From the IMG/VR virus record IMGVR_UViG_3300045988_074608: a stretch of 64,000 nucleotides of DNA; one strand, given 5' to 3'. A model generated the notes under the pieces. That model was given only the letters and a program-made list of their open reading frames with translations, had not been told where the DNA came from and did no database searches. The translations under genes were made by a program, and so were the position numbers. Shown here piece after piece: positions 32,460 through 57,920 of the stretch. Positions within the stretch are counted from its first letter, which is position 1. Each line of letters starts with the position of its first letter. Source of the stretch: a virus.

Positions 32460-32460
32460 A

Positions 32461-34007: not shown

Positions 34008-34009
34008 AA

Positions 34010-34979: not shown

Positions 34980-34993
34980 AGTTTGTAAATTTA

Positions 34994-35032
34994 AATAAAA
35001 CAAAAAAGGGAAAGGGATACTGTCCCTCTCCC
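34994..35032 (-). terminator. Rho-independent terminator
   Basis: The minus strand reads GGGAGAGGGA-CAG-TCCCTTTCCC, followed by TTTTTTGTTTTATTT. It lies 14 nt after the TAA of the gene ending at 35046. Confidence 0.75.
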
Positions 35033-35045
35033 TTCGTTAACCATT

Positions 35046-35882
35046 TTATGCACCAGCTGCAGGTGTTGTTTTGAGTGCTGCTATTAAAGTAGCGTTCTGA
35101 CGTTGCTGACTGAGCTCTAATCTAGCATCGTTATACCTTTGCTGTAAATCAGAATTCCAATGATTATTCAACGTATCTATAATGCGCTGAGTGTTATCTT
35201 GATTTGCACGAATTATATCGCACTTATCTTTGGCATTTTGGAAACTTGATGCAGAGAATCCTCGTTCAACGCCTGTTGCAACGTACTGGATTGCATTCTG
35301 CAAAATATTCGTCTGATTACATGTTGCAAGCTGCTGCTCATAACCCATCTTGATAATGTTCTGTTGGGTCTGGCAGCAACAATCTTTAAGTGATTGAATA
35401 ATATTCATATCACCTAAGTTTGCCGCATTGATGACTCTCTCGGCGCTATATCCAATTTTACCTCCAACCTGTTCAATTGCTGAACGAACTGCACAAACAG
35501 AGTTTTGCAATTGATTAAAATCGCAATTGAGATTAGAAGCAAGAGTTTTAAGATCACAGTTATTACCCTAAATAGCTCCCATAAGAAGGTTACTATTCTG
35601 GTTATCTGCCATCTAGCTGCGTAAAGAATCAAGTTGTGATTGGATTTCGGCTCCCTGGAGACCATTTCTGTTGCCCCAGAAACCCCCATTTCCAAACATC
35701 ATGAGGAATACCAAATAAATAAAAGGATTATTCATCCACTAGTTGTTATTCATCATTGATGCCATTGCCAACGGATCTTCATTATTGCGTCCTGCCATAG
35801 CTGCTATAGCAAGAGCATCGTGGTTATTGTATGCGCTCGGATGATCGTAACAATAAACCTTCTCAGTTATCTTATCTTCCAT
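35046..35882 (-). CDS. Cys- and Gln/Asn-rich protein (278 aa) in a GC-enriched island
   Basis: ATG at 35882 follows the in-frame TAA at 35931-35933. Three TAG codons join it to track ORF 35046..35510. It has a hydrophobic N-terminal segment (PFIYLVFLMMFGNGGFWGN) and motifs DCCCQTQQN and NNCDLKTLASNLNCDF. No family recognised. Confidence 0.6.
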
Positions 35883-35960
35883 AGTAAAAAGAATTAAAGG
35901 ATTAATAAAATGGTGTTCGAAATACGAACCTTAATAAAATAACTTGCAAGTTAATAGGCA

Positions 35961-35986
35961 GATTTAGGTGCACCACCACCTAAATC
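35961..35986. repeat. Perfect 10-bp inverted repeat (hairpin) in an intergenic region
   Basis: GATTTAGGTG-caccac-CACCTAAATC. The 12-nt palindrome AACTTGCAAGTT (35941-35952) and the hairpin GTTCG-aaata-CGAAC (35915-35929) lie in the same 190-nt gap. Confidence 0.6.
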
Positions 35987-36071
35987 CAAGTAGAAAAGTC
36001 TACTATTTATATCCGTAACGGATATTTTGATAATCATGGTTGCACAAAAAATGCTAAATTTTGATAATTTA

Positions 36072-36800
36072 TTACATATGAGTGAATATATATGTACCAT
36101 TTTGAGGGTATGGACCTAGATCTACAACCCAAGAACCGCTTTGACCAGCTGTAAGACACATGTTATCAAACGAATAATACGACCCTTTTTTAAGCACAAA
36201 CTGTCTTGCGGAACTGTCTTTATTTGTAGCTGTTATACGCCATTGAGTACGTCCATCAACCATATGTACGTTTTTCTCAACCTTTGTGATATAATTAGAC
36301 GAATCAATAAAAGGAGTTATGCTGTTGATAGTAGAAGAAATATTAGGATATAATTCAACCCATTGTGGAGTTGCTTTATAAATATCATTCAACTCTATTA
36401 AATTTTTAACGTCATCGTTGTAAATATACAGTTTACCTGTTGTTTTATCTTTATATATTACATTATTATATGGAATTTGTCCAATGATTCTTTTAACATT
36501 GGATATCATTGCTGTATTAATACCACTTCCATATACAGTATCGTTGTTACATACATATAAGTGATTTGGTACTGAATTATTTGCCCATGCCTAACTCATG
36601 CTTACAAAACCACCACAAAAATCACTATTGTTATATGTGAGTCTTAAAAAATACACATATGATTTAAGCGTTGCTGAAGTTGCCTAGTGTGGATAACCGT
36701 AATTTAATTCAATTATGCCATCAAACTCTACAATTATATTCTGCTCTTTAACTTTATCAACCAGAGTTGTAAGCCCTTCATAATTTAAATATTTAACCAT
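36072..36800 (-). CDS. Fiber-like protein (242 aa)
   Basis: ATG at 36800 follows the in-frame TAA at 36810-36812. Two TAG codons join it to track ORF 36072..36509. The N-terminus MVKYLNYEGLTTLVDKVKE resembles that of the next gene upstream. Confidence 0.6.
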
Positions 36801-36820
36801 GATTATAATTTATTTATATT

Positions 36821-37681
36821 TTATTTGAATAAGTTCTAAATTTCAGTATCTGTGATTGCTTCAAACGATGAAAGTGCTCCCAATTGACTTTCTACAGTAT
36901 CCAATCTACTTTCTATATCTGTAATACTACTATCAATATTATCAAACTTAGTAGTGAACGGCATAGATGCAGCGCTGGCACTATCTGATGTTTTATATGA
37001 ATGTGCGTATTCTGCTTCAGTTGGTTTTCCTATAGTAATTGTTCTAGTATTACCGCTATCAGAAGACGTTGCATTCATATATTGAGATGAAATTACAACA
37101 TCTTTCCAAGGTACGTTTACATAAGCTTTCTCATTCTCAAGCTTCAGGCCGTATTTTCTATTATTAGGTGAATCAGTATAACCAATCTAAATACCACCAC
37201 GAACACCAGAAGCTGCTAATGGAAGTGAATATGCAGATGGTGTCTGATATACGTGTTTTGTACCATTCCAATACAGATAACCTGCAGATGGAGTAAGACC
37301 CTTAATTGTTTTTCTACCAGAACCAACCACAACATGTTCGGCTGTGATATCAGCAGTTGCTGTAACAGCACCATTAATATTAGCCTGTACAACTGCCCAT
37401 GTTACAGAAGGGGTTGGTGTTGAAGTAACAGTCTGTGCAATAATCATATCACCAGACTCAACGGTCTGTCCGCCTACAGAGAAAGCACCTTTACTTGTAT
37501 CTGCAATATATACATCACCTACTTTTGCAGTAGCAGTATTCAAACTATTAGCACTATTAGCAACTCCTCTGAATACAAGTGCTTGTGAAAGAGCGCTGAC
37601 AGTATCTTTTGTAGCATATTTACCATTAATCTATTTAACAAGTTCTGTAAGACCTATTAGATTTAAATATTTATTTGTCAT
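36821..37681 (-). CDS. Fiber-like protein (286 aa)
   Basis: ATG at 37681. Track ORFs 37187..37543 and 36836..37078 share the frame. The TAG at 36836 is followed four codons later by TAA at 36821-36823. The N-terminus is MTNKYLNLIGLTELVK(TAG)INGKYATKD. Confidence 0.6.
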
Positions 37682-37683
37682 AA

Positions 37684-38028
37684 TTAAAATAAGTTTTTAA
37701 TTTCTTCAACTGAAATATCATTTATATCAGTTTCAAATTTTTTCCAACCTGATGCAGATCGTCTATTAGCCCAATTTTCGAGCATATAATAACAATCTTC
37801 ATCTTTTACATACCACATCTAACCTATTGCAGTATCTCCAGTAGTATCATTGTTCTATTTTAACTACCAATCAAATACTTTCTAATTTTCACCAGTAGCA
37901 ATCAAATCGTTAAATGTGTCTACACGTCTATGTCCAATAACTTCATCAGCATATACAATACCGTAACCGGTATTAGAGAAGTTATTAGTACGCATCGTTC
38001 CAGATTTTATCTGTCCTTCTTTTGCCAT
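37684..38028 (-). CDS. Hypothetical protein (114 aa)
   Basis: ATG at 38028 is preceded by AAGGAGG. There are four in-frame TAG codons. The stop is TAA at 37684-37686. Confidence 0.5.
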
Positions 38029-38039
38029 AATAAACCTCC

Positions 38040-39590
38040 TTATTTTATTTCTAATGAGTTATTATTAAATGCTCCTTTATTCATACTGACATACACATAG
38101 TAGTTCTAAGCAGCTCCTGTGCTATTCTATATAGATACCTATATCGGTTCTTTAAAGTTACCAAGAATCGGATCTGAACCATCTGCAATAATCGTAGATA
38201 ACTTACCCATATTAGCAGGGTAAGCGTAACAGAAGTACTGAGAATTATCAGTAGTTACTGTTATCGTAGATGTTCTATTATCTGCGAGTTTGCTATTCAA
38301 TGATGTTATATCTGAAGCAGTTAAATTCTAAGTAAGAACGTTACCCCAATATATATAATCACTAAATTTACAAGATACTGACACAGATGCTGTATCCATA
38401 CCAGATGCAGATACTATCTTAGAACCATTCAACATTAATCCTTTTTTAGGAGCTGCTACAGTGACACTAAATGTTTTAGTTCCTCTTGTAGCACTTGTAA
38501 ATGTCTAAACATCACACTCTTGACTAAGTACGCCTGATTCTGGTAGAATAAATCCCCATAATGTTGTAGTACAAGTAGTAGGATCTTTATAACCATCTGC
38601 CCTAGTCCATTTCCACTATCCTTTATAAGTAACTGTAGAACCAACAGGTACTATTATTGAAGTGGCGGTACTTGTAGCAGGTGGTTGTTGAAATCTAGTA
38701 TATATCCATTGATTTACCGCAATTTGCGGATATATGACAGGTTTATCTCCATTTAATATAGCATCAAGATCATCTCTATTTTCTCTATAATGAGCATCAC
38801 AATACTATTTATCTGCAAAATATTTCTTTAATTCACCTGTATATGTAGACAAGCCTGTATCATCTAACAATGGTTTTAGAACATCTGTAGTAGGATCTAA
38901 TACATATGGTATAAATGTATCTTTTGCTATATATATAGTCTATTCAAATGGTTTTCTAATTCCTACTGGAAGTGGAGCATTTGCATTTACGCCGATATTA
39001 TCTAAAAGATTATCTGCTGTAGCTATATAGTATTTATTTTCATACTAAATCATAAAACCTTTCTTATCAGTACTATATACCACTCGTCTTCCATCTATCG
39101 CTCCAATACTCTATTCTTGTGGATTTGGAAGTACTGTTGTAATATATTGATCAAAGAATAGAATGCTGCCAACACCAACTGTAGAAAGGGTATCAAGTTT
39201 ACGCTTATCCTAAGCGGTCATGAGACCCGCATGTTCAGAATTTGCACCTGTAATAATCACAGCTGTTTTTATAGGATTCTAAGAATTACCACCATTTGAT
39301 GTTCCTATTTCAACACTATTTTCTGAATAGTTCAGAACACCTTGTTCATTTGTAACAAGACCATTCTTGATAAGTTTTAGGTAATTGAGAACTTCTCTAT
39401 CTTCTGCAGAAATGGTTTCGTTCTTTAAATCAATCTGTTCTTTCAAATAGTTATTTATAACATTCTAAAATGCCCCAGCTCCCTGATTCCAATCATAATC
39501 CTTAACCTATTCAGCACTAGCAATTACACCAGACTGACTACCATTAACAAGTCTTGAAAAGAATTTTATATCGTCTTCTAAATAATTCAT
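38040..39590 (-). CDS. Tail fiber-like protein (516 aa)
   Basis: I checked the frame line by line and found TAG only between the ATG at 39590 and the TAA at 38040-38042. It contains GANSEHAGLMTA(TAG)DKRKLDTL, which resembles the GLMS-x-x-DK-x-KLD motif common in phage fibers. Confidence 0.6.
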
Positions 39591-40471
39591 GATATTGTAA
39601 ATTTAAAGGTTGTCTAATCTAGTTTCTAATACGACCTATAACAATATTTATAATCAGGTCTTGTAAACTGTTTCATAGGTTGTTCCTGACCAGCTATAGT
39701 AAGACTATTTATCTCAGTATTACTAAATATCCATAAATATGCCCAATCACCAGTTATATTTGCTATAGAATGTTCTCCAATAAGTGTAGTTTCATTGTCA
39801 AGTAAAAATGTATCTACATCTTGTACTTCTTCTACAGCTTGAAATCCAATACAATGATTAGATGTATCTTGTGTTTCTCCAAGATTTATTATAATATTAC
39901 CACTATCTGAATCAGAATCTTCCGACAATTCAAATATTGTACCATAATCTATTGTATAAGTATGTAGATTTTTCTTACACCATCCGTCTTCATATGTTGT
40001 CATAACAACAATCATTTTATAAATACCACATTTCTATTGACAAGCTGGGAAATATGCAGCTATTTGATTCTGTTCTTTTTCTATTGTAAATGGAGCCATG
40101 TATTCTTTACATTCATGCTCACAACAACAATGACAACAATCGTCAAACTTTTTAGGATTTATACCAAATCCATTGTAATTAGGCCAGATATGATAATCAT
40201 GAAAATTACCCATACATACAGCATATTCACATTTGTTATATGACGGATTTACATTATATTCAAATTTACCACAACCATGTACTGTATATTTAGTAGGCTC
40301 ATAAAACTATGGAAACGGTTCTTTTGGAAAACGTTTTACACAACAATGTGTTTTAGAAGAATTATTTACAAAATACACACGCAACTGTTTCATATTGACA
40401 GTGTCTGTAGAGGCAGGACCCTTAATTGTAAATATGACTTTAATATCGTTTCCTGTTCTTATTTTTTTCAT
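39587..40471 (-). CDS. Cys-rich structural-module protein (294 aa)
   Basis: ATG at 40471 follows the in-frame TAA at 40490-40492. The frame is continuous with track ORF 39626..40015. After two further TAG codons it ends at TGA 39587-39589, forming an ATGA overlap with the next gene. Confidence 0.6.
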
Positions 40472-40484
40472 AATAGTGTGTATT

Positions 40485-40516
40485 AAACATTAAAAGGGGC
40501 TCTTAAAAAGAGTCCC
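40485..40516 (-). terminator. Terminator-like hairpin with T-tract
   Basis: The minus strand reads GGGACTCT-TTTTA-AGAGCCCC (one A/C mismatch), followed by TTTTAATGTTT. It lies 20 nt after the TAA of 40536..41582. Confidence 0.5.
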
Positions 40517-40535
40517 AAGTAATGTAAGTTAATAA

Positions 40536-41582
40536 TTAAGCTGTAATACCCTCTGCTGTAATATTACCAAGAGCTGTTTCGATTGCTTCAAGGTCGTTTG
40601 AACCAGTTACACCATAAATCTCAACACACTCCTTTGTACGACGAATCTGATCATCAGCAGCGTGATAATGATTTTCAAACATGATTGTAATACCATCGTA
40701 ATTCTTTGTGATATCTGTAACCATATCTGGTTTAATAACTGGCCATGTACCTTCACCACGGTTCAAAATACCCTGGTAACCCATAGCCTGTGCTTCACGA
40801 TCGCGTACAAGTTTAGCATCAGTTGTGCACCACTTACCTGGAATCTTTTTGATTGCAAGGCCTGTAATAGAATACTTGTTCTTAGAAGCAAATGCTGGAG
40901 CCGTAGGATCTGTATAATATGCATTTACACTGAAACGCACCTTATTAGCCCAGTTCAAGCTATCATTTACGTTATCGTCATCATAAGCCATAGCCTTGAG
41001 TGTCACAACACCAGCCGCAGCAGTAGCATAAACACGAGCTCTCTTATACTGAACGTTGATTTGCTTCTTAATAGCCTCTGCAATAGTGTCAGCAGTATCA
41101 CCTGGCTTAGTTATATACTCATAAGACTCCGTCCACTTGCGATAACGAGTAGGCATATCTTTAAATGTAATACGTATAACGATACGACGTTCCCCTTTAG
41201 CAAATTCGCTGATAACTGCAGAATCTACTTTACTAAAATCAATAGTAACGGTATCTTCACTATTATTAAAGTGTGTCCGTTTAACCATTGATATAATATC
41301 ATCACGCTTAATTGTATTTGACCACTTAATAACAGGAACATAAGTAACATCTCCATCCTTTGTACGATGCGCTACATTCTTGCTAGTTATAAATCCAATA
41401 CGGAACTTTTTAGTGTTTGTATTAACCGTATAAAGATCTGACTCTGCAACACCATCCATATTCATCATTATAAACTTACCAGCGTCAGTGCTAGGTGTAT
41501 TCTTATCTGTTGGAGCTGTAGGCTTTGCTGCACATACTCCTGCTCCAGTACCTACAAGTACTGTATTTACATATGTAATCAT
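40536..41582 (-). CDS. Abundant-looking structural protein (348 aa), GC-enriched, no TAG
   Basis: Intact track ORF with ATG start and TAA stop, followed by a terminator-like hairpin. No family recognised; the structural role is inferred from position and codon composition. Confidence 0.65.
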   Translation of the reverse strand: MITYVNTVLVGTGAGVCAAKPTAPTDKNTPSTDAGKFIMMNMDGVAESDLYTVNTNTKKFRIGFITSKNVAHRTKDGDVTYVPVIKWSNTIKRDDIISMVKRTHFNNSEDTVTIDFSKVDSAVISEFAKGERRIVIRITFKDMPTRYRKWTESYEYITKPGDTADTIAEAIKKQINVQYKRARVYATAAAGVVTLKAMAYDDDNVNDSLNWANKVRFSVNAYYTDPTAPAFASKNKYSITGLAIKKIPGKWCTTDAKLVRDREAQAMGYQGILNRGEGTWPVIKPDMVTDITKNYDGITIMFENHYHAADDQIRRTKECVEIYGVTGSNDLEAIETALGNITAEGITA

Positions 41583-41660
41583 AATTTATATATTTAATTT
41601 TTTCTACTCCCTCTATTTATATAATACTAGACCTAACTAGCTGAGGTTTCCACGTTAAAA

Positions 41661-42356
41661 TTATTCTTGAGTATTCACTTCATTTGTAATGGTTTCATAA
41701 CGTTTATCTTGCTGATTTTCGATATACATCTATGCAGCAATCTTAATTATTTCATACATTACATTATCATTGAAATCCGTATACTCAACAACCGGATTTT
41801 CAAGAGAAATCTTATTAGGGGTTCTTAAATAACCTATCTTATAAGATTGTATTTTATATTTCTTATCTGTTAATAACTAACAACCGTCGACAATTCTAAT
41901 TCTAAGAGGTCTTGCTTTATGTCGTGTATAATGAAAATCTGTCAAAGAATTATTTATTCTATGCATATAACTATCTCTAGTACATTCGAATACATGAGTG
42001 TTCATTAAATGCTCATTTGACAAATTTGAAATAACAACATCTTCATTTAAAATGTATAAAAAATCTGACGGATAATTCACCTAATATGAATCATAATCTG
42101 GATTAGAATTTGAAGTTAAAAAATCATCTTTTCCATATTCTCGTTCTTTATACAGATTAATAAGATCCTCTCTTCGTTTTTCAGTTTGTTCAAAAGATGT
42201 TTTATGTATTAAGTCTCCATTAAATCTAAGCTTTACAAACTTAGAAACAGCCTGGTTCAACCAATACATAGAATCGTCTGTGTTTGGCTTATTAACAGCA
42301 TCGTTTATCTTATTTATCTCTGTTTCAAAAGAAACTAATATATTTAATGGTGTCAT
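41661..42356 (-). CDS. Head-tail connector region protein (231 aa)
   Basis: Track ORFs 42081..42356 and 41877..42080 share a frame and are joined by TAG. By hand, the frame continues to TAA at 41661-41663. The ATG at 42356 forms an ATGA overlap with the upstream gene. Confidence 0.55.
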
Positions 42357-43141
42357 TGTTCAGTCTGTTCTTGTTGTTTTTGCTATTGTGGTTGTTTCTT
42401 ATTACCACCAAGCAATAAAAATTTATATTGACTTATATACATCTAAACAGCTCCATCTACAATATCATTAAAAGCAGAAAACGGCAATGAACAAGTACTA
42501 TGTATAGCACCTTCTGACATGTCTTCATCATTGTAATTCTATAGATTGAATCTATAAGGGTACGCATAATACACTAAATCTACTGATTTTATAACTGTAT
42601 AATTATCGTGTATTATTTTTATACAAGAATCATTATTTATAGTACTTTCAAATACTACAAAAGGATATCTTAAAATATTACCACTATTAACATAAGAAGT
42701 CATAATACTAGCAACATCTTCCTACTTTATCAATTGATTTGGTGCAGTATTGGTAGATGGTTTTATAACACCACTTGTTCTAGGATTCTTATAATTATAA
42801 GGCATAGAACTAGTAGATCTGATATATCTGTAATAATCAGATGGTTTTTGAATCGTTGTACAAATATCCATACTATCCAAATCTGATATATTACTTGTAT
42901 ATATATTCTTATGTCTAACTAATGATTTTAACATTTCCACTGCTTTGATCGCAGGTCCTGTTCCGTTTTCTAATTTATCTTTTGCGAGAATCAAACCGTC
43001 GACATATTTTAATACATATTCACTTAAAAATGAATATATTGTATCTGTATCCAACTTTTCTTCATTTGCAAAAGATGGATATATTTCTATTATTCGCCTT
43101 TCGAATTCTATGGCGAGTTGTCTTGTCTATTCTCGTGTCAT
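42353..43141 (-). CDS. Head-tail connector region protein (262 aa)
   Basis: The ATG at 43141 overlaps the upstream TGA (ATGA). The frame is continuous with track ORF 42722..43054 through TAG codons to TGA at 42353-42355 (ATGA again). Confidence 0.6.
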
Positions 43142-43803
43142 GATTCAAAACTGTTTAATGAAGCTTTCGTAGAAAGTCTTGGCGATTCAACTATTTCTGC
43201 AGACATTATGATTGCCATATTTATAACTTCTTCAGCAACATGGTCTGGCAGTTCAAATAAAGTATCATCTGTATTACCTACAAACTTCTCAGGCTTTTTA
43301 ATATAAGTACATCTGAATTCTTTTAAATCATCTAAAGTATGCATATACGGATCGAATAATAAATGTATTTTCTAACCTCTTATGTATATAACTGGATTCG
43401 GGATCCAAGGTACATTTGTAGAAGTTTGTTTAAATTTACGAGCAATATCGTTACTTACAAGTTGTACCATTTCTCTAGTATCTGGGGATACAAGTTGTTC
43501 TCCTTGAATGAAAAACAACATAGATGGTGGAATATTGTAAGTAACTTCATTAAAGTCTTTCGGACCTACTCTGTTCAAAGCATCTGTCTATATCAAAGCT
43601 CTGATATCTTCAATTGCTTTATTATCGCCCTCAAAACCAACTTTTCTCGTATTATTACCAGTAAACTTATTTGAAACAACAGCTAAATACGCTTTGTCTA
43701 AAATTGTTAGTATTTCATAATCAGTAAGCGACGGATATGACGATGTAGTGGTCATCTTGTCATATTCTATCAAAAATTTAGTTTTTATATCACCATGCGT
43801 CAT
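43138..43803 (-). CDS. Head-tail connector region protein (221 aa)
   Basis: Track ORFs 43588..43803, 43372..43578 and 43138..43344 share one frame and are joined by TAG. The stop is TGA at 43138-43140. Confidence 0.65.
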
Positions 43804-43819
43804 ACGTCGTATTATTTAA

Positions 43820-44572
43820 TTATTTACTTTCTACTTGGTTTATAATCGAAAGTTTAAGGTCTTGATTTTTCTTTGCATCAAGATAAGCAATAGCATCTTG
43901 TTTAGAATCTGCAAACAACTCACTACCATAATAATAATGAGTTTTATCTTTGCGGATAACACCTTTTGCAATAGCACTCTCAAGCAAGAATTCTGTTTCC
44001 TTTGATTTATTGTTTACCCAAACGTCAAAGAACTTCTTAGGATTCTTATCAACAAGACCAAACAACGTAGATTCAACAAGCTCATTTGATAATGTATCTG
44101 ACTTAAGACCAAACAAACGCAAACATTTACGCATCTGATCCAATGACAGTTTGTCGAATTCTTTGATAGCATCTCTACGCATCTTATTAATCTTGTTCTG
44201 CTCAATAGCCTCTGCCTGCTTATTGATTAAGAGATAATCCTTACTAGCTGCAAGTTTATCCAAAGATGTAGCAACACGCTTATGACCTGTCAAGAACTTA
44301 ATAATCATCTCCTGTCTAGGATATGTATCATCAAGCAACAATGGTCTAGAACCAATCTTTACTACAAAGTTCTCCCAATAAGGACTGCTCTTAGCAAGAG
44401 TTCCTTCCGCAAGACCTAGAACTTTCTCATAATGTTTCTCATCTTCTGGGGTGAGACCCGTATATATCGACCCGGAACGAGTAAGGTAGGGTGCAATATA
44501 GTCAAAACATGACTTATATTTAATTAAACCCGCCCAGGGATTTTTCTTCATTATTTTTAATTCAACTACCAT
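43820..44572 (-). CDS. Head-module protein (250 aa), no TAG
   Basis: Intact track ORF directly downstream of the MCP, with a TAA stop. Confidence 0.65.
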   Translation of the reverse strand: MVVELKIMKKNPWAGLIKYKSCFDYIAPYLTRSGSIYTGLTPEDEKHYEKVLGLAEGTLAKSSPYWENFVVKIGSRPLLLDDTYPRQEMIIKFLTGHKRVATSLDKLAASKDYLLINKQAEAIEQNKINKMRRDAIKEFDKLSLDQMRKCLRLFGLKSDTLSNELVESTLFGLVDKNPKKFFDVWVNNKSKETEFLLESAIAKGVIRKDKTHYYYGSELFADSKQDAIAYLDAKKNQDLKLSIINQVESK

Positions 44573-44593
44573 AATTTAAAATTAGTATGTTGT

Positions 44594-44632
44594 AACGTCG
44601 GACATTGGGGATAAATCCCCAACTCGATCGTT
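44594..44632 (-). terminator. Strong stem-loop after the MCP gene (terminator or processing site)
   Basis: The core is TTGGGG-ataaat-CCCCAA, flanked by additional pairing (AACG...CGTT). It lies 19 nt after the MCP TAA, and TTTT follows about 12 nt downstream. Confidence 0.45.
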
Positions 44633-44650
44633 AATTATTATATATTGTTA

Positions 44651-46450
44651 TTAGGCTGCTACGTTATAAGCACCTTTATTCGTAATGTCTGTATCCTCAG
44701 CATCACAGTACAGAATACCACAAGACAGCGGATTACGAAGCATAATACCCTCCTCACCGAGGAAGTGAACCTGGTAACCATCACGGCTGTTAGAACGTAC
44801 TGTATTAATACTATTGCTATATCCAGCTGGAGTTACAGAACCTGCTGTACACCACTGTACAAACTCACGACCCTTACGACAAACCTTAACAACGTTTGCC
44901 TGACCATCACGCTGACCAAGATCAACAAACAAGAATGTGTATGACATCAATGGTTTACCTGTAACCGGATGCAACTGACGGAACATTTCCATATTATCAA
45001 ACAGAGCACAACGCTTAACTGTAAGCTCAATACCGTTAGTCATCTTATATGTAGTAAACTGACCACCGAGTGTCAACTCCTGACCAGAACCAGTGATAAA
45101 CTTAGTATCAGTAAGCTGGAATCCAGCTGCCTTCTCACGAAGTACACGGTCAAATTCTCTAATCATTTATGTTTAGTTCATATCGTTAATACAAACCGGT
45201 TTTTATTGACCAAATAAAAACCCTCATATTTTCATATGAGATCAGACTATATCTTCAACCTATAAAAAGGTTGTCCACCATTTCGATTTCACTTGAAACC
45301 TACTCCTTTCGGATAGTCGTTGAACGTTCTTAACTAAATAAGTTAAGCTTCGCTGCTGATTGCCTCCAACTTAATGGTAAGGTTTTCCAGCAATTAGATG
45401 GATTTTCAAGTAACATTACTGCTACAGGGAGCTATGTTGTTAACCCATTTCTCCTGTCAAAGCGATAAACTTACGCTCCTGTGTACCGAGAATATTATAA
45501 CACAGATCGAACAGATAATCCTCAAGCAGCTCAGCTGTCAAATGTGTATAATAACGTACATTAGCAGGACTAATCTGCTCAAACAAACCTGCAGAGATTG
45601 GCACAGGTCTTCCATTTTTACCTCTAAGAGCATATGTACCATCAGCATTACGGTTAGAACGAGAGAACAGAAGGAACTTCTCCTCACGACGTTTCCACTC
45701 ACGAAGAGCCAACCAATACTGATAATCAGACCACAAATAAGAAGTCTTACCTGTCTCAGGATCCTTCAATGCGATAGCAAGTACTGTAGAATAAGCATCA
45801 CCTGTAATATCGTAAGAAAGACGAAGAGTTGTAAGGTTATTACGCATCTTAAATGGAGTCTGATAGCTGATGATATCTGCCTCATCACTGTACTCCTCGT
45901 ATGCAGAACCAATACGGCTTACCTGACGACCAGGAAGAAGGAACTCACCAGGAATATATGCTCCTGCGAAACCATCTGCTACATAGCATTCATATACCCA
46001 TGTAGAACCATCCTGATAAGGTACACCATTTACACGTACCTGATAGTTTACATTATCGAAAGCAAGTACAGCACCAGGACCGAAAGCTTTTTCCTCAAGT
46101 CCAATGTAGATAGGAGCTCCATTCAAACCTGGAGTAACAGTATTCGCATTGTTAGAAGTAATCTCTGCACCATCAGCCTTAGCCCAACGAATATTTACAG
46201 CCTTCTCCTGGTCAACCATTACTGACCACTCGTACTCACGATTCTCAATAGTCATAGTCTTACCGAGACCACCAGTAATCATGTCGATAGCAGTAGATAC
46301 ACCATCATCCTTAGTACCAAATACCAAAGAAAGAAGACCACTAATCTCATGAGGTCTTGTAAGAAGTGCGTTTGAAATCATGTTCTCATCAACCAAATCA
46401 GAGAATTTACGACCTCTGTAAAGCTGAAGATTATTTAAAAGTGTATTCAT
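44651..46450 (-). CDS. Major capsid protein, two exons (46450..45443 and 45163..44651) joined across a group I intron; 506 aa, no TAG
   Basis: Track ORFs 45440..46450 and 44651..45166 are in the same frame and are separated by 279 nt of ribozyme-like sequence. The predicted junction is ...LTGEMG/IREFDRV... It is a GC-enriched gene placed after the scaffold-like gene, as in crAss-like head modules. Confidence 0.75.
45164..45442 (-). mobile_element. Group I intron (IA2, T4 td-like), ORF-less, 279 nt
   Basis: The canonical P, Q, R and S elements occur in order on the minus strand: AATTGCTGGAAAACC, CAATCAGCAGC, GTTCAACGACTATCC, GAAGATATAGTCTGATC. The 5' exon ends in GGU, followed by UAA. The intron ends in ...AACAUAAAUG. 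Several stretches (AACGACUAUCC...GGAGUAGG...CAAGUGA...UCGAAA...GACAAC...AGAUAUAGUCUG) match my recollection of the T4 td intron. Confidence 0.85.
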
Positions 46451-46478
46451 AAATTATTTATTATTTGATTAATTGTTA

Positions 46479-47621
46479 TTATAGCCACCTTGACGCAATG
46501 TCAGCTACTGAACGTTTCTTGTCATCTATATTAAAACTACTATGATTCTTAGTCTAATATCTTAACATTTTTCTAAGTTTTTCTGCAGCAGTCGTTTGAC
46601 CAGTGCGCTTGGCTTCTCCAATGAGGGCGTCGCCTTTCATAGTGAAGTACGCAGACTCTATGAGATTTTCTATCAAGTTTTTCTGGAAATCTCTTTGATA
46701 CTGAGTGATTCCTTCTGAATCAACTTTTGTAATGTAATCAAACAATGCTTTTCTATCTTGTTTTGGAATAGCGACACCTCTGATATTGTCTAGAGATGAA
46801 ATAGTATTGTTCAAATCTGTTACAAATTGTCTAGCTTGCTCTTGTTGTGCCATTTGCTGCTGTTGCTGAAGCTGTTGCTGTTGTTGCAACTATTCTTCTT
46901 GATATATTTTCAATCTTTCAACAGCGTCGTTAGCCTCATCTTCAAGCATATCAGCATCTTCATATCTTTCTATCTTCTTATTAATCTACTCATCGGAGTA
47001 ACCGGATAGTTTTAAATAATCACGAACTGCCATCTTTTGATTAGATTCATCCTCCATATCCATATTATCATATTCAATAGTTTGAGACATTCCATTATAG
47101 AAATCTTCAAACTTTCCACCATTCTTAACATATGCGTCAAGTTGTGCTATACGATCGTCTGCATATTGAGGTTTGGAATTCTCAGCAACCGTATCTTCGA
47201 TATAGTTGATAAGACCTTCCATTGAATCTGGTTTTTCATCGTCTGCTACATCCCATCCTAATTCTTCAGCGAACGCGTCAAAGAACAATCTAACATTCTG
47301 TGTTTCAAGCTGATCTGCCTCATTATCTGTTTGATCATCCTGTCCATCTGAAATATCATCAGGATTATTATTCAAATCATCCTGATTTGGAATAGGAGTA
47401 GTATCATTATTGTCTGGATCAATTACTTGATCATCGTCTGATCCACCAACGTTGTTGGGATCATTATTGTCGTCTAAGTCGTCAATATCATCATAGATTG
47501 GCGTATCTTGTATAGTTTGGTCATCATCCATGTTAGATACAGGATCTGTTACATCGTTATCATAACCAAGCTTACTTAAAGCATTATCAAATGTTGATAG
47601 ACTGTTTTTCTTTCTTGCCAT
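46479..47621 (-). CDS. Scaffold-like protein (380 aa): acidic N-terminus, poly-Gln coiled coil
   Basis: Track ORFs 46986..47621 and 46554..46889 share a frame, with TAG in between. The TAG at 46554 is read through to TAA at 46479-46481. It has D/N/E-rich tracts and QQQQQLQQQQQMAQQEQ. It lies immediately upstream of the MCP. Confidence 0.6.
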
Positions 47622-47664
47622 AATTATATATAATAATTAGTTAAATTAAATTAAAATTTAAATT

Positions 47665-47748
47665 GCTGCTCAATGTGCGAAATTTCTCGCAAAATTGGCA
47701 CGTTTGCGTAATGTTGAGCTATATTTTCCTTTGGGTGCGCTCAACACC
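47665..47748 (-). promoter_or_regulatory. GC-rich structured intergenic element with mutually exclusive helices
   Basis: On the plus strand the segments are GCTCAAT (47668), TGCGA (47676), TCGCAAA (47687), TTTGCG (47703), GTTGAGC (47713) and GCTCAAC (47739). TCGCAAA can pair with either TGCGA or TTTGCG. GTTGAGC can pair with either GCTCAAT or GCTCAAC. Confidence 0.45.
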
Positions 47749-50012
47749 TGTCTAGCAAACTCCTAGACACCCATGTTATGCTCATTAGCGGCTTCAGTAA
47801 ATTTACCTCTATTTGCCTTCTTTATATGTATATCTTTTCCAGAGTTGTGATTTTGTGATTGTTGTAATCCCAAATCTCTCCATTTATTAGGAATATGTAT
47901 ATCCGCACCTTTTACAAGATTACCTAATGTACCATATGGTTCTTGTGTCATATGACCATATATAGCCATGATTTGTTCGTTAGTCGCATCCGGGAACATC
48001 TGTCTTATTATAGACGCACCATACGGTCCATGACCATCTCCTGTCCATAGTTTACCTGTATCATGCATTAATGTTGGAAACAATGCTTCATCTGGATAAC
48101 CAAACTTTAATGCTCTTCGATAAGCATCTCTACTATGTAAAAATGTATTCCAGTCGGTTTTATGCCATTTCGTATTTTCTAATCTATGTTGAGGTGTATA
48201 CCCATTAGGTATGTTTTTCAAAGCTTCTCTGTATACTTCTTTCAACTTATCTACATTGATACTTTTATCTTTGTTTATAATATCTGAAATATTAAAATGA
48301 CGTCCTGTATACATTTGATAAGTTGGTTCGTTAAATTGCATACGTGGTTGTTTAGTATACTATTTACCTAAAAGTTGTATTTTCTAATTTAAATCAATAC
48401 GTTTATCTGGTAACACAACACCTTCATAACTATATCTTCCATTTGGAAGTTGTTCAAACCACGAAAGATTATCTGTTGGCATTTCTCCAGTTTTAAATCC
48501 TATTCGCTAACCGGCACGTAATTTGTTAATGGGCTTTGTTATATAAAAACTGCGGTCTATTCCGGTTGGTACTTCTACACCAACTCCACCTTCTAATACA
48601 CCTATGTGTCCTATCCCAGATGTAGACGTTCCTCCATCCCATAACGTACCGTACCCAGCCTATGTTCTATTACCATGAGAAGATCCTTGTTTTCTTTTAA
48701 GTTTAGTTATTTTTTCCTCCTAGTTTAATTTTTTATACCAATAACCATCTTTAGACCAAATTTTGTTTTCCATAGCATTGCGTCTCCATGCATCAGGAGT
48801 TCCGCTGACCAACGAATTTTTAGAATCTTCTGTTGTTATATTCATACCGTACCTTCTTAAAGATTGTATTTCAGGCGTTTCTGACCATCTATACCAGTTA
48901 TACGGAGAATTAAAATATTCTGGCCCAACTGTACCATCCCAAGCTTTTACATTTTTATTTAAGGTGTTAGACAATGCTTTATTGCGCAACCAATTTCCAA
49001 CTTTTGTATAACTAAAATCTTTAACAAAATCATTCACCAATTGTTTACCTGCCTATCCAACACCTTTAAACAAAGGATAACCTGCAGCTGTTTCTACAAT
49101 CATTTCTCCAACAGGATCTACTGGAGAAACTGGTATTATCTTCATTTGCCGATGTTCTTTTCCAGATCTATCTATCCAATTATAAAACTCGGATTCTGGT
49201 GTATTCTAACTGTATAATTGTTTTAACTGATCATCAGAGTATTTTGTCGTATATAACTTGCCCGAATCATCAATAAAATCCCATGTAGATTTATCATTTG
49301 GGAGTCGTTGTATATATGGAGTTACTTTAGTTGTCGCAGCGTTTATATTTGGACCTGCAAAATACTAATCACCATCTTGATAAATCATTTGCTATCCATC
49401 ATCAGTTCCTATATCAAAACAATCCTTACCTCTTTTGTATCTTTTAGGTTTTACGATAACTTGAGGTAACTATCCTTCGTATCTAGTACCATCGTCCATC
49501 CATAGCGGTTTGTTATCAAACGTTCTAAGTTGTACACCATTATCTTCACCATCTATTATATAATTAATACGATCATCCATTGATATAGGTGTTTCTTTAG
49601 GAGAAATATACTTATGATCACTTACCCAATGGCCACCTTTCAACCCTTTCGGATTAAATCTTGGATCTATTTTACCAGAATATATAGAAAGATCACTAAA
49701 TGTAGGATGATATACTGTTTTATAAGTATCATCAAAATGTGCTCTAGGATCGTCATTTAGAAAACGATACGCATTCTCTGGATTAGAATTATACCACCCT
49801 TCATAATCAAAAGTGTTATCTTCGTCAATTTTTAAATTTTTATATTTGGCTGCTTTTGTTTTCCAATCCTAATAAGACATATCCTTACCATCATCAAAAG
49901 ACTATAATATTCGTTTACCCTTTCTGCGTAAACCTCTTATCGTTTTCTTGCGCACATAGTCTTTCTTTTTCTACCATGTTCTCTTAGGCTTCTGTATAGT
50001 CATCATATCCAT
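47670..50012 (-). CDS. Large post-portal protein (up to 780 aa) with a C-terminal HD-domain-like motif
   Basis: I followed the frame codon by codon from the ATG at 50012 through track ORFs 48720..49040 and 47763..48341, finding TAG only. The C-terminal region reads LMHDTGKLWTGDGHGPYG...IYGHM (H...HD...H pattern). The TAG at 47763 may be the real stop; read-through adds 31 codons to TGA at 47670-47672. Confidence 0.55.
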
Positions 50013-50784
50013 AATCTTTTAAAGTTGTCATCTATAAAGGCATCTGTCCATTAACCATAGCATTATATGCCGTCATAATATCTGGCAAATTAGATTTATA
50101 CTGTGTAACTTCACTCTCTTCTGGTTGAGGTGTTACGTATGCATGAGGTATTTTATCTGGGACAATCTGAGGTTTTTGAACATTTGTATTATCTGCAGGA
50201 ATAGTTTGTTTCTAAGACTGTTCTACTTGTGGACCAAAATCAGATAATTTCATAAGAGGATCTTTATAGAACATCTATTGATTCTTTATCTCATCATTGA
50301 TCCACTTATCAGCCTGTTTCATCTAACCTAACATACTTATATAATGATCTGGAGAATCACTATAATATCCATGTTTACCTAATGTACGAGCATAGTTTGA
50401 AGTATTAGCTATACCTAATGCACCCATCTTGTTTATAAGATTTACATATGCTTTATAGAAAGCCTCATCATCTGCAAATGTAGTATATGTTTTACCATTA
50501 TAACCATAACCACCATAATTATGTTGTTTTAAAGCTATATTAGATCTTCCATAGTTAGACTCATATGCTAACTAACGAACCATATTATCCAATGCAGCTA
50601 ATGGTAAATTATGTGCTTTCAAATACCTATATAAACCTCTACGATGCGTTTTTACAAACTCTTGATACGGATTCTTACCTCTTTTAAAATCTGGAAGTGG
50701 ATTCCCGATCATATCCCAATAAGACTCGCCAGTTTGTTTTTGTCTGGCGAGTAATTCTGATGGTTTATTATAATTATGTATCAT
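49984..50784 (-). CDS. Peptidoglycan hydrolase-like protein (glucosaminidase/FlgJ-like domain), 266 aa
   Basis: The ATG at 50784 lies 2 nt after the portal TAA. The translation ...LAYESNYGRSNIALKQHNYGGYGYNGKTYTTFADDEAFYKAYVNLI... resembles the mannosyl-glycoprotein endo-beta-N-acetylglucosaminidase fold motif (E-S-x-x-G...N-N-x-F-G). There are four TAG codons. The stop is TAA at 49984-49986. Confidence 0.5.
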
Positions 50785-50786
50785 AA

Positions 50787-53267
50787 TTATTTTTCTCCTG
50801 TTACTTTATTCTTTAATGCCGTTCTTGCTTTCAATTGCTCACGCTCCATTGCAGCATCATCTTTCTATTTTTGTAACTTTGATTCATGCTACATTTGCTC
50901 TTTAGCAAGTTTTATTTTCTGATCCTCTATATCACGTTTCTGTTTAATCTCGTAATCTTTTGTATATTGATCAGCACGAATCTTCATCTCGGCTGTCGCA
51001 TTTTTTGCGATTTCCATAGGATCTGGAATATTATTCATATTAGCATCCTTATTTTCTGTACCACGGTATGCACTAATTTCAGCTACTGCAATTTTAGTAG
51101 CATTATCTTGATCAATCTGATAACGTGTAAGATCCATCTGAGCTTCTTGAAGCATGAGTTCTTGCTCTTTAGCTTGATTCTGCATTTCTTGAATCTTCTG
51201 TTCTTGTTCTGCTTGAGCTTGTTGCTGCTGCTGTGCTTGTTGTTCTTGACGAGTCTGCATATCTTTGAGCTTCTATTTAATGATATTAAAGTTATCATTT
51301 GTAAGAATCTCTGCTGCTTCTAACAACGATGCACCATTTTGCATAGCTGGTTGTATAAGTTGTTGTAATTTCTATATGTTTTCAAGATCTTTAGATGTAT
51401 CTGATACAAACACATCCATATCTTCATAATAGAATTTCTGTGTCACATTCAAAAAGGCACGTTCTCCATTATCAAATATATATTGTAACTTATCTTTACC
51501 TGTAGCTTGCCATGCACCTTTTGCTGTATTTAACAACATATTCAATACATGTCTTTTAACCTAAGCATGTACCCAGAATAAAGGTTCTGTAATATGTGAA
51601 GATTGTGTAACACTGCGTTCTACATTACCTACAAGTTCTGATGTACTTATTGCACCCTAACGCTGTTCTGTAATACCTGATATAGTTCCGGCAAGTTGTT
51701 CTATCTTATCCATAAGCTGTATATATTCAGCTATTACATTTGACATTGTAAGATCAAGAGCTGTTATCTGATTAAACTGCGCAGGTTTACCACCTTCACG
51801 ACCTGGGACATTCCATTGTGTATCATATGGGTTTATAAAATTAACACCAACACTTGACAAATAATGCATCCATTTATCAACTGTAATACCCATAGATTTA
51901 GGTATCTGTGTAACGTCCATATTTACAACCTTACCTTTATCTCTAGCTATTGCAAGTTCTAGTCTATACCATAATACAATATACATATATTGCAAAGGTT
52001 TAAGAATACTTACAAGAGATCTCGGTCTACTATTTGTATTACTATATACAGCACCACAATAAGGTAGTTTCTAACTATTAGGATTATCAATACTTACATG
52101 TTGGTACTCAATAGGTTGTATACCAAAATATAAATCATTACTGCATCTATAACCCTCCCAAACTTCGATAACCCAATCTGGTTCTATAGATATTTCATTT
52201 CCTGTAGGTTGATATGTTTCATCAACAATGTCTACCTACATCTAACCCTATTCGTCTTGTGTTGTCACATAGTTTATTTTCTTAAAAGATTTCCAACAAC
52301 AGTGCCATACGTTTACATTATGATTACCTTTTTCATCATATATAGGATTATCATAAAAATGTAACTAAATACCTCTGAAATCATCACGAATACCGTGTTC
52401 TCCTAGATTATTTGCAGGTACAGCGTTTATTAACTCTTCAAGCTTAATAAGATCTTTTTCTGTAAACTTATCATAATATCTATCATAAACCTCTGTAATA
52501 GGTAAACGCATTCTTCTACAACACCATGCTCCATCTTCTATAAATTCCAAATCAGGACTTTTATCATAAGAAAAATACATAGGGTTCACTCTTTCCATAT
52601 AAGGCTCTGAATTTAAAACACCAACATAATATACTTCCTAGCCGCTAATGAGTGCATCTTTCCAGCCTTTGATAAACTCGTTATCGATGCCTAATTTTTC
52701 ACGCAAATATGTAAGTGTATGATATGCAGTGTTTTCTACAACATCCTTATAATCTTTGTCCATGTATTTAGCAATCTATTCTGGAGGCATTATCTCTCCA
52801 TTTTGAAGCTGCTCCTAAAACTATTGCTATTCTTCAGGACCCATTTGTGCCATTACTGCAGCTTGCATGTATTGCATTAATAGCTATTTCTAAGTTTCCA
52901 TTAATTCGGAAGTAGCTTCTTGTGATGTACGAACTACTCTAAAATTCAATGGTCTCTTAGTTTCCTCTCCGATTAGAAGATCTATTTTTGGTCTAATGAT
53001 ATTAAAATCCTAAGGTGTTGCAGGAAAACCTTCTTCTACCTTAAACGGATTAGTTATTTTCTTAAAATCTTTTTCATCGAAGATACTGTTATACAGATTA
53101 TAATAAGTCTGTATCTCTCCATGTGCAGTATGCGTCTATCCCCCTGAAACGATATTGCCTTCGCCAATAATATAATTTACGCAATCATGCTGCCATTTCT
53201 CATTTTTCTTCGATAGCGGTAATTTCTGCTAAGGGAATCTCGAATTATATAAATTATCTTCTACCAT
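50787..53267 (-). CDS. Portal protein (826 aa), Gln/Glu-rich C-terminal tail
   Basis: The ATG at 53267 lies 3 nt after the TerL TAA. Track ORFs 52365..52598, 51657..51995 and 50889..51260 share the frame, and the gaps I checked contain TAG only. The stop is TAA at 50787-50789. The position after TerL and the size fit a crAss-like portal. Confidence 0.7.
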
Positions 53268-53270
53268 TTG

Positions 53271-56200
53271 TTAAAAATTAAATATTGACGAATCTTCTTC
53301 CTAAGGACCGTCGTCCCACCATTGACTACTAAACAATGGTTTTTCAAAGAGTTCGACTTGTTTATTCTGTTCTTTAGCACTAGATACTTTTACTTGATAT
53401 AATTCTTCTCTATAAATCATAACCATGCATAGTGCTATAACACGGTCTACATTACGAACCTAATCATCCATTATTAATTCTTCTATTAAAGGTTCGCTAA
53501 ATATTCTTTCTATATTTGGATGTCCTGGTTCATATTCTTCCATCATCCATTCTAGTATTAAACCTTCGCCATATGCTCTTATTTGTTTTGTCATATGACA
53601 ACCTTTTCTACGCTATACTGTAGAGTTTTTAAACAATTCACTAATTACTTTATCAGGCTAATCAGCTAATAAGTAATCGCAATGTTTATTTGTAAAATAT
53701 GGGTATATACCTTTACGTTCGTTCTCAAATAATAACCTAGCGTTATAAAATAATAACAACTTACGAACGTTTTCATAATACTCTTCTGCTGTATCTGGTC
53801 TACCAGAATATTCGGCTACTATTACATCTGTCCAAGCTTCTCCTGCTTGTACACGTTTAAATATAAATGTAGACCCTAATGAATTTGTAAAAGATTCATC
53901 ATGGTCATAAGGGTCACATCCTCCTATATATAATCCAAACGGAGGATCCTTTACTGGGTACTCCCATATAACAACTGATCCTGCAGGTTTCTAATCTTTC
54001 TTTAGTGGATAATTAGTAATATCTCCAGTTTTCTTTTCTATTGCTATAACTCCACCGTCACCATCCCATTGCAAATCAACTATGTGTTTCATACTCTATA
54101 ATTTTTTATTAGTACGAATTCTTGTAAGTTGATCCATTAATAGTTTGCGCGGAAATATGTTTTTACCAAGCTCTAATATAGCTTCTTGTGGTTTTATCGG
54201 ACGTTCTGATATAAATCTATCTATGGATTGCTAACTAGCACCACCATCTTTAATAATGTTACGTTGTTTTATAAGTTCCTCAATTGTTTTTTCACGAAGA
54301 CTGTTTCCATCTTCATCCATATAGATATATTTACCATCATCGTCAAACGATTCAAGATTACTCCATGCAGGTACGAAAAAACCACATTCTGTTTGTTCTG
54401 CATTATCATCCCATATATTTGGAAATGATAGAACATTATAAGCTTTTGGTTTATAAAATAATGCTTTCAAACCATCGAACGACGCACCTTCTGTTCCGCC
54501 TGTGTTATGTGTAACAATACCGTTGCATATATAGTTATGTTGTTCGTCTGCTGTAAGATTATATATATCTTGTTCACCAATATCTTCAATATTTACAATT
54601 TTTTCAGCATGTACCCCAAGTACGTATTTATGATATTGAGCAACATGTTCTTGTGTGTATAACATCATCAAATCTAATGCTGATTGTTTATATGTAACAG
54701 CACACGATATACATTTTGCGAAATTTCCAATACTTGTTATATCATTAATTGTCAATCTCCAGTGTCCTGGTCCATCTTTTATAACTTTACCATTAGAAAC
54801 GTGCTTTCGATATTTAGTTTTAATAAAGCGTATGCTACAATGAACACCGAAATGTATCAACACTTCCTCAATCTATCGTAATAATGGTTCCTAACACTAT
54901 GTTAATGTTATACGAGGTTTTCCGGATTTATCAATTTGTATATATCCGTCGGTGTCAAACAAACCACCTATTAATTCCGCTAAAGATTCTTGATCATATT
55001 GATGTATATTTACTGGTAATCGTTTCTTATCTTTTACCTGACCATAAATACCGAGTTCTCGTAATTTTGGACAAATTCCTTTTATGCGAGTTTCTTTATA
55101 AATTTTACCATCTTTAGTAATACGAACTGGTCTATCTAACGAAGTATTAAAATGTGTTTCTATGTATTCATTTATTTCGTTATCACAATTTGACAACCTT
55201 GGCGTTTTATCAAAACCATAACTACCATCGCCAATTAACCAACCAACAACTCTAGGTTCCCACATTTTTTTAGTTCCAAAGAACGGAATGTTGTCGATAA
55301 CGCCGACCTATTCACCAATTTTACATTTCGAAGCTTCATGCCACTTCCATTGTTTCATTGTTTGATTTTCTTTACGTTTTCCAGGAACTCTTTTTGTCAA
55401 ACCGGCATGTGACCATAAAATCGGGTGGTCCGTACTACATTCTAATATTCTTCCAGTGTTTGTGGTTATTCTAACACATGGTTTTTTAGCCGGTGGATTG
55501 AAATGTGATATATGTTGCTAAACAGCCTAATAAGTATCCCAACCTAAAATACCATCCTCTTTATGTAAATCTTCAATATTAACACAATTTCCAGAAGAAG
55601 TCCATACTTTTGTACCTTTACATACACATCCAAAGGATATCATCAATCCAAATGCAACACCATCATCCGTTTCTACAGCAGGTTGTTCAACACGCCAAGC
55701 ATCTAATAAACTTGGGAATTTACCACTTTCTTCCCACAATACTAATCTACCACGAGTACCACGAATACGTTCAGGATCGTTTTTCAATGTAATACCTGTA
55801 ATACTTGATAGATAACCCTATTCTGTCTATTTACCAAATTCGTCAGTAACTTTGTAACCAGATACTCGTTCCATTCTTGTAGATGTCAAACGTTGTTTTG
55901 CCCATGCTGTATTCTTATCTATAAAATCCATGATCTGCCATGCTTTTGTAAGCAATCCATCTCCGATTAAGAATTTTTGTTCTGATGCAACTGCAAAATT
56001 TTTAGAACCTGGTATGAGTTCGTAATTACGAACTAACATTGAAGCACCTTTAAAGCTATATCCACGTTGTCTACATTTTAACACTGCCATGTGTTTACCG
56101 ACTGTTTCTGCTTCTTCTACAGCATTAAAATAATAATAATCATAATCCCAAAATTTAGGGAAGTCAAATATACGCTCTCTTCTTTTTCTTGTATCACCAT

Positions 56201-57780: not shown

Positions 57781-57920
57781 ATATGCTTTTTTTATTATTT
57801 TTAATAGCGCAGTATTTACGAATCGAACGTAAATCTCTGTATTCATTCCATACAGCGAAATTCCATTATTCCAATACCGCTGGTAGCCCCACTAGGATTC
57901 GAACCCAGACTAAAAGGGTT

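Follow-up and report, generated by a model that had tools for sequence, protein, structure and literature searches.

The closest characterised counterparts of the element described here are three small introns in orf142, a late structural gene of Staphylococcus phage Twort; they are group I introns of the IA2 subgroup, and a crystal structure of the ribozyme is known. Within the crAss-like phages, Yutin et al. (2021; PMC7886860) described group I introns in the major capsid protein (MCP) gene, together with an intein in TerL, in the Delta group (Suoliviridae), where they were found via endonuclease domains, and a 2023 review (PMC10136315) repeats the MCP introns for Suoliviridae. Capsid genes are interrupted in other phages as well: splicing of a group I(-like) intron in the capsid gene of mycobacteriophage LittleE was proven by reverse transcription PCR and N-terminal sequencing (PMC3706429), where splicing is efficient, and the same article cites the capsid-gene intron of lactococcal phage Tuc2009 as another that splices efficiently. 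Here we analyzed a 64,000-nucleotide stretch of DNA (the window) from IMG/VR virus record IMGVR_UViG_3300045988_074608, in which a 279-nt interval without an open reading frame (ORF) divides the MCP gene. The phage is crAss-like and TAG-recoded, its nearest relatives belonging to Suoliviridae, subfamily Oafivirinae.

A BLAST search against phage genomes returned 256 records, the best being introns of Twort-like staphylococcal phages. The Twort orf142 introns are the nearest characterised match (72.5% over 196 nt, intron nt 22-217, E 2e-14); like the window intron they are small, ORF-less and located in a late structural gene, and their Rfam scores are comparable, although their phage belongs to Herelleviridae and has a host of another phylum, and they lie in another gene, which holds all three. 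The T4 td intron resembles the window intron in following a 5′ exon that ends in ...GGGU, in opening with UAA and in possessing P7.1/P7.2 and P9.1/P9.2. Its 3′ block, from P7 to the 3′ end (~159 nt), aligns through AACGACUAUCC, GGAGUAGG, CAAGUGA, AGAUAUAGUCUG, UUAACGA and AACAUAA, and the window block 45245..45318 (P7 5′ strand to P7 3′ strand) is alignable with td, whereas the td 5′ half gave no alignment to the window intron in local alignment. The td intron also differs in its length (1017 nt), in carrying the GIY-YIG ORF of I-TevI, in interrupting an early nucleotide-metabolism gene and in its end (...AACAUAAUG). An earlier reading of this DNA, made from the letters and their translated ORFs (the sequence-only reading), had called the interval td-like, which is correct at the level of the IA2 subgroup, although Twort, not td, supplies the nearest characterised relatives. 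The strings that it gave for td (AACGACTATCC, GGAGTAGG, CAAGTGA and AGATATAGTCTG) are all present, identically ordered, in the actual td intron, but td ends in GAACAUAAUG, not in AACAUAAAUG.

With the introns described in PMC7886860 the window intron shares the phage group, the host gene and the class of element, and the window likewise has a TerL intein and stop-codon recoding. It differs in being a 279-nt, ORF-less copy that is invisible to an endonuclease screen, and in its position: the window MCP is split between Gly336 and Ile337, whereas that of cr131_1, annotated in RefSeq as MCP, HNH endonuclease and MCP, is split at about residue 130. The LittleE and Tuc2009 introns also lie in a major capsid gene and, as here, would need efficient late removal; their sequences are unrelated to ours, and the LittleE intron, unlike the window intron, carries an HNH gene.

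The interrupted major capsid protein gene

Exon 1 of the MCP gene (45443..46450; minus strand, as are all window features given below) comprises codons 1-336 and ends in ...ALTGEMG, with GGU as its last codon and U as its last nucleotide, as established by the ORF list, translation, Pfam and alignment to intronless MCPs. Exon 2 (44651..45163), delimited by the ORF list, translation and the same alignment, comprises codons 337-506 and the stop codon, and opens at 45163 with AUU AGA GAA (IREFDRV...) in the frame of exon 1. The sequence-only reading was accurate in placing the two pieces in one frame and exactly 279 nt apart, in its coordinates, and in having the interval open with UAA after a 5′ exon ending in GGU and close with AAACAUAAAUG. 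The UAA (45442..45440) directly abuts exon 1 and constitutes, in frame, intron bases 1-3.

With the 279 nt taken out, the joined exons encode 506 amino acids (aa). This protein matched Pfam PF23898 (Crass_capsid) with 699.7 bits in a single stretch (residues 2-491 on model positions 1-495 of 496) and also matched phrog_11589; the 506-aa product given by the sequence-only reading is correct. Alignment with the intronless MCPs of cr272_1, cr130_1 and cr7_1 (Suoliviridae/Oafivirinae; 81-84% identical) showed no gap across the junction, and the junction motif ALTGEMGIREFDR (ALTGEMG/IREFDR, the slash marking the splice site here and below) is unchanged in all three. Alignment of the joined junction as DNA (120 nt) with 74 related loci required 0 gaps, the site reading ATGGGT/AT in 71 of these 74 intronless loci. 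The protein would stay the same if both splice sites were moved by one base; a terminal U on the 5′ exon combined with a terminal G on the intron is obtained in the chosen register alone. The MCP has no TAG codons, and the exons are free of frameshifts and stops.

Gene callers place the start of exon 2 at the AUG formed by the final three intron bases (45166..45164), and in public assemblies exon 2 is called as a 171-aa 'Crass_capsid' gene of its own. The capsid protein might accordingly be made from two truly separate genes, as polypeptides of 336 and 171 aa, with a spacer that is merely intron-like; the pieces are annotated apart by gene callers and by one public third-party annotation record, and the spacer's final AUG does supply a start codon. 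We regard this as extremely improbable. Intronless alleles with ~97% identity in MCP DNA, and 99% in protein sequence, each consist of one 506-aa gene, contrary to the two-gene homologues that the sequence-only reading had kept in mind. Moreover, the motif in which the break falls is invariant and part of a single Pfam domain, the spacer is a ribozyme that scores highly over its full length and is subject to structural selection (see below), and 7 of 11 aligned same-site introns end in ACG instead of AUG, so that the start codon is not conserved.

Intron structure and covariation

A search with the Rfam group I intron model RF00028, as the sequence-only reading had proposed, gave a match at 45452..45223 that scored 108.5 bits against a gathering threshold of 50 (E 3.1e-27; model positions 1-253 of 253). 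This was the sole Rfam match within the 64 kb, even at E<=1. For calibration, the same model gave the three Twort orf142 introns 100.9, 97.4 and 63.6 bits. The minimum free energy z-score of the interval was -4.5, and 0 of 200 shuffles folded equally well. All four core elements were located in the order predicted: P AAUUGCUGGAAAA, Q AAUCAGCAGC, R GUUCAACGACUA and S AAGAUAUAGUCU. The prediction that the interval lacks an ORF also held, as no stretch from start to stop on the sense strand exceeds 28 codons, whether or not TAG is taken as a sense codon.

RF00028, colinearity and covariation together place the intron at 45164..45442 (279 nt, or 93 x 3), from the in-frame UAA to an omega-G at 45164. 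P1 (45429..45446; Rfam alignment and fold) pairs exon GGGU and intron UA (45446..45441) with the guide UAGCUC (45434..45429), leaving a U·G wobble at the 5′ splice site; its U·G, U-A and G-C pairs are unvarying in 11 of 11 same-site homologues. It is followed by the P2 hairpin (45410..45425) with a GUAA loop of the GNRA class, and by the P3 5′ strand UCCAUC (45402..45397), whose partner is GGUGGA at 45279..45274 (Rfam alignment, fold and covariation). The strands of P4 are UGCUGG (5′ strand, containing P; 45392..45387) and UCAGCA (3′ strand, containing Q; 45359..45354), and they enclose a short P5/P5a hairpin (45382..45363; Rfam alignment and fold). A 3-bp P6 and a 7-bp P6a hairpin occupy 45324..45353, where the body of an HNH ORF sits in sibling introns. 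P7 is formed by GACUAU (5′ strand, R; 45318..45313) and AUAGUC (3′ strand, S; 45250..45245); between its strands lie P7.1 (45312..45305) and P7.2 (45300..45285), both placed by Rfam alignment, fold and covariation, and P8 (45272..45257; Rfam alignment and covariation). The 3′ domain, placed by the fold, consists of P9 with a GAAA loop (45240..45223), a 10-bp P9.1 (45222..45198) and P9.2 (45197..45175), each with 6 pairs that show compensatory change. In the 3′ tail, which runs to 45164 as AAACAUAAAUG, the penultimate AU forms with J7/9 the 2-bp P9.0, after which comes the omega-G; a terminal G is also present in all 12 same-site introns that were extracted and in the 270-nt variant described below. 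IA2 introns are reportedly defined by extra P7.1/P7.2 hairpins together with P9.1/P9.2. In the window intron P7.1/P7.2 follow the P7 5′ strand and precede the P3 3′ strand, and P9.1/P9.2 are present.

Covariation was assessed in an alignment (A5) of 11 distinct introns from the same MCP site, with the P5 extension and the ORF cut out. An earlier MAFFT alignment (A4) of the full ORF-deleted introns was dropped, as the short P5 of the window copy was misaligned in it, and the sequences were recut and realigned as A5. Over a 68-pair structure (P1-P4 and P6-P9.2), 97.6% of 722 cells were standard pairs, two-sided compensatory changes occurred in 33 of the 68 pairs, and 0 of 500 shuffles attained any of the five measures used. 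When the 3′ partners were slid by 1-3 columns in A5, pairing was only 35-43%. The covariation supports the conserved core of P3-P4-P6 and P7-P8, with its P3/P7 pseudoknot. Change was nearly all compensatory in P2, where it affected all 6 pairs, and in P8, P9, P9.1 and P9.2; P7.2 covaries too. The third P6 pair appears as G-C, U-A, A-U and C-G among the homologues, and the P9.0 pair as A-U in 4 of the 11 and as G-C in the other 7. P4 and P7 are unvarying, hence uninformative for covariation, and L2 and L9 are GNRA tetraloops in every one of the 11. Taken as a whole, the pattern of substitution shows selection on the predicted intron structure. With the RF00028 match, the exact restoration of the MCP and the homology to the Twort and td introns, it confirms the core of the sequence-only reading: the MCP gene contains a genuine group I intron that lacks an ORF and is of the phage IA2 type.

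Same-site introns and presence/absence polymorphism

The best 80 IMG/VR MCP loci were all intronless, because the ranking favours contiguous matches, and same-site introns were reached only via scans with a core motif and with an HNH protein. A scan with the P7.1-P7.2 core motif (AACGACTATCC...GGAGTAGG...TCAAGTGA) matched at least 120 viral contigs, too widespread a distribution for the motif to serve as a lineage marker. Among the matches listed were 5 contigs with a crAss-type MCP broken exactly at 336/337, and a protein scan with the ORF of their introns brought further same-site contigs. An exact 27-nt pattern of the 5′ junction had no match in IMG/VR, where the window's own lineage is absent.

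At least 12 IMG/VR crAss-like contigs carry a homologous intron of 972-992 nt at the identical codon boundary, starting straight after ATGGGT and ending in G. Among the 11 distinct same-site introns the first bases are UAA in 7 and UGA in 2, and the intron of L215 opens with UUU UGA. Each sibling intron contains an ORF of ~235 aa that matches Pfam HNH_3 (29.8 bits); it begins in the extended P5, crosses the P4 3′ strand and P6, and enters the P6 loop. These HNH-bearing siblings (L196, L197, L117, L132, L212-L216, L218 and L220) share with the window intron the insertion point (ATGGGT/...G/ATH MGN GAR TTY), a homologous core with 68-76% identity in the common parts, the P1 guide, P7.1/P7.2, P9-P9.2 and P9.0; they differ in their length and extended P5, where the window copy has a short P5 and the 7-bp P6a hairpin. 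Since siblings at the same site have an HNH ORF, the window intron is, judged from these comparisons, the endonuclease-free form of a family targeting this capsid-gene site. In L197 (intron 691-1681), L117 (290-1280) and L132 (5099-6090, minus strand of the locus) the HNH ORF starts ATG-NNN-NNN-TAG, with an in-frame TAG at codon 4, and synthesis of these endonucleases would depend on a suppressor tRNA. An analogous idea, late gating of a recoded intron endonuclease, was put forward by Borges et al. (bioRxiv 10.1101/2021.08.26.457843).

A second ORF-less variant, 270 nt long, was found on 8 contigs, in host MCP DNA that is 89.6% identical to that of the window. It differs from the window intron by 29 substitutions and 9 indel columns, mainly in P6a, P7.2, P8, P9.1 and P9.2; pairing is mostly kept, and P9.2 is wholly rebuilt. 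When the window intron was compared with L249 3509-3778, the first 97 nt (45346..45442) showed 1 difference and the remaining 182 nt (45164..45345) showed 37 differing columns. This mosaic conservation suggests a recent swap of the 5′ half between phage lineages, or recombination within the intron.

Six contigs, from independent samples, encode the exact exon-1 product, among them a near-complete genome of 96.4 kb, and the intron is 100% identical in the three independent assemblies that were read; an assembly artefact is therefore excluded. These data also bear on a further explanation, in which the intron is a decayed, non-splicing relic and the MCP a pseudogene in a defective phage, or the locus a chimeric assembly. 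In the homing cycle an intron is expected to begin its degeneration by losing the endonuclease ORF, and splicing of this intron is something that we infer, both of which would suit a relic. Such a history is nonetheless very improbable, as the allele is identical in independent assemblies including the 96.4-kb contig, the diverged ORF-less sister retains every helix via compensatory changes, introns of proven activity have lower Rfam scores, the exons are intact and the MCP is indispensable. Two genes, a pseudogene and an assembly artefact were thus discarded on the strength of the intronless alleles, the compensatory changes and the identical independent assemblies.

The intronless alleles nearest to the window (L004, L251, L252, L254 and L255) are on full-length contigs and have MCP coding sequences 96.7-97.4% identical to that of the window. 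One protein cluster at 90% identity holds 506-aa, 336+171-aa and 130/131+386-aa forms together. As judged from these contigs, intron presence is shown to be polymorphic among near-identical phages. The patchy presence may have arisen from gain, by homing or recombination, or from loss. The first 15 nt of exon 2 (ATTAGAGAATTTGAC) are those of the intron-bearing L197 and L220, whereas the nearest intronless alleles read ATCCGTGAATTCGAC, with four synonymous differences; mismatches are concentrated from -307 to +92 around the site. This pattern is suggestive of co-conversion of the flanking exon sequence, although the numbers are small and the same exon-2 variant is present in a few intronless alleles.

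Other MCP insertion sites were seen in related Suoliviridae, near residues 120-131 and near residue 287, and some MCPs have two introns. These MCP insertions lie at 5809-6642 in L210 (cr131_1), at 6742-7571 in L132 and at 381-1229 in L212/L220.

Splicing, mobility and other interruptions

The intron is very probably a functional group I ribozyme, removed from late MCP RNA by the usual guanosine-initiated pathway in two steps. Capsid production would then depend on self-splicing, as the sequence-only reading proposed. A transcript of exon 1, intron and exon 2 would fold into P1-P9.2, and exogenous guanosine would attack after the exon-1 U of the U·G wobble (GGGU/UA with UAGCUC). The 3′ splice site would then be docked by P9.0 and the terminal G, and the exons ligated as ...GAA AUG GGU/AUU AGA GAA.... 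The ligated product would read ...GAAAUGGGU/AUUAGAGAA... and encode the 506-aa capsid protein, the spliced junction being expected as ...GGAGAAAUGGGU/AUUAGAGAAUUUGAC.... Ribosomes on unspliced RNA would halt at the in-frame UAA of intron bases 1-3.

Several points weigh against this interpretation. Splicing of the MCP intron itself we infer from sequence, and the exact spliced 506-aa protein, a possible proxy for a spliced cDNA, had no match in a collection of 15 billion proteins. The A5 alignment was trimmed by hand and the structure was taken from the window sequence, so that the zero-slide register is somewhat favoured. For pairing of the 3′ exon with the guide (P10) there are no more than 2 bp, and these lie out of register and are not kept in the homologues. 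Many group I introns can do without P10, so that a lack of it is no bar to group I membership. Finally, the intron has no homing endonuclease of its own (no ORF >28 codons), and the 64-kb window contains neither a homologue of the sibling HNH protein nor a second copy of the intron family, which leaves mobility unexplained.

Alternatively, the ribozyme fold may be real while efficient splicing in the cell needs a helper in trans, such as an RNA chaperone, a translating ribosome, or a phage or host protein, in which case capsid output would be conditionally gated and would not rest on constitutive self-splicing. This is compatible with splicing by the ribozyme rather than exclusive of it. The weak or absent P10 would fit a need for help, as would the conserved in-frame stop (UAA or UGA) at the intron start, which is immediate in 10 of the 11 distinct same-site introns, is at the second codon in L215 and is consistent with coupling between translation and folding. 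Such coupling is reportedly established for T4 td. The interruption of the amber-suppressor tRNA and of TerL in the same genome points the same way. We nevertheless consider a helper requirement unlikely, given that the core helices, GNRA loops and P9.0 are all intact, that the sequence demands no maturase and the intron encodes none, and that the closely related Twort introns self-splice in vitro.

TAG is a sense codon in this phage, ORFs of at least 200 codons totalling 18,722 aa when it is so read and 4,635 aa under the standard code. The region concerned, 2560..56465, includes a 5,957-codon ORF at 2560..20433. TerL (53271..56453), with 17 in-frame TAGs, is interrupted by a 375-aa intein (54504..55628; ...MISFG/CVCKG to ...IVTHN/TGGTEG; 6 TAG codons) that has the Pfam domains Intein_splicing and LAGLIDADG_3; the extein-joined protein of 685 aa matched phrog_6681 (terminase large subunit) in one stretch, which bears out the intein proposed by the sequence-only reading.

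The amber-suppressor tRNA gene (57881..58942; anticodon CUA, tRNA-Gln-like body) is split by a 987-nt insert (57921..58907) in the anticodon loop, between anticodon positions 35 and 36, that begins after U and ends in G. The joined halves give a clean cloverleaf in ARAGORN. The insert is largely filled by the ORF of a 300-aa HNH endonuclease (58877..57975), with only ~30 nt of non-coding sequence on the 5′ side and ~54 nt on the 3′ side. The 'tRNA intron' of the sequence-only reading is thus a real insertion, but its group I identity could not be demonstrated, as a search for a group I core in it gave no Rfam match, and Rfam also passes over T4 td and nrdB. At its gathering threshold RF00028 passed over the T4 td and nrdB introns (L084, T4 134000-146000) and the cr131_1 MCP intron (L210), all ORF-bearing. 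Rfam screens under-count ORF-bearing phage introns and endonuclease screens miss ORF-less ones; the negative Rfam result on the tRNA insert is consequently uninformative. Processing of this tRNA could be rate-limiting, as most late genes would need the suppressor in a TAG-sense phage, and the insert is perhaps of greater interest than the MCP intron. A tRNA-Ile with the unusual anticodon AAU was called by ARAGORN at 57807..57880, adjoining the 3′ end of the split tRNA, and a lone tRNA-like T-arm (UCGGGUUCGAUUCCCGA) lies just upstream of it at 59016..59033, where no complete tRNA was called.

It is conceivable, if quite unlikely, that the mini-intron is mobile in trans via the HNH endonuclease of same-site siblings in co-infecting phages, and that the three interruptions jointly form a splicing-dependent late gate. 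Alternatively, the MCP intron, TerL intein and tRNA insert may be merely selfish passengers.

MCP introns in Suoliviridae crAss-like phages have already been published, and their combination with a TerL intein is the norm in this group according to PMC7886860. The case presented here is a well-documented new example, not a new phenomenon; only the ORF-less 279-nt form, the exact site and the relation to HNH-bearing siblings are new, and the current understanding is unchanged because the phenomenon is published for the phage family. The capsid gene is annotated as two 'genes' (336 and 171 aa) by gene callers and in at least one public record, and ORF-less introns elude endonuclease-based screens of crAss-like phages, so that MCP phylogenies and abundance markers for a very common group of gut phages can be corrupted. 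The group I intron families of Bacteroidota phages thereby gain a clean member that lacks an endonuclease while its siblings at this site carry ORFs. The intron also provides a natural series of intron-plus, intron-minus and ORF-plus alleles for study of the homing cycle, and it shows that a ribozyme is tolerated in the late gene that such a phage expresses most highly.

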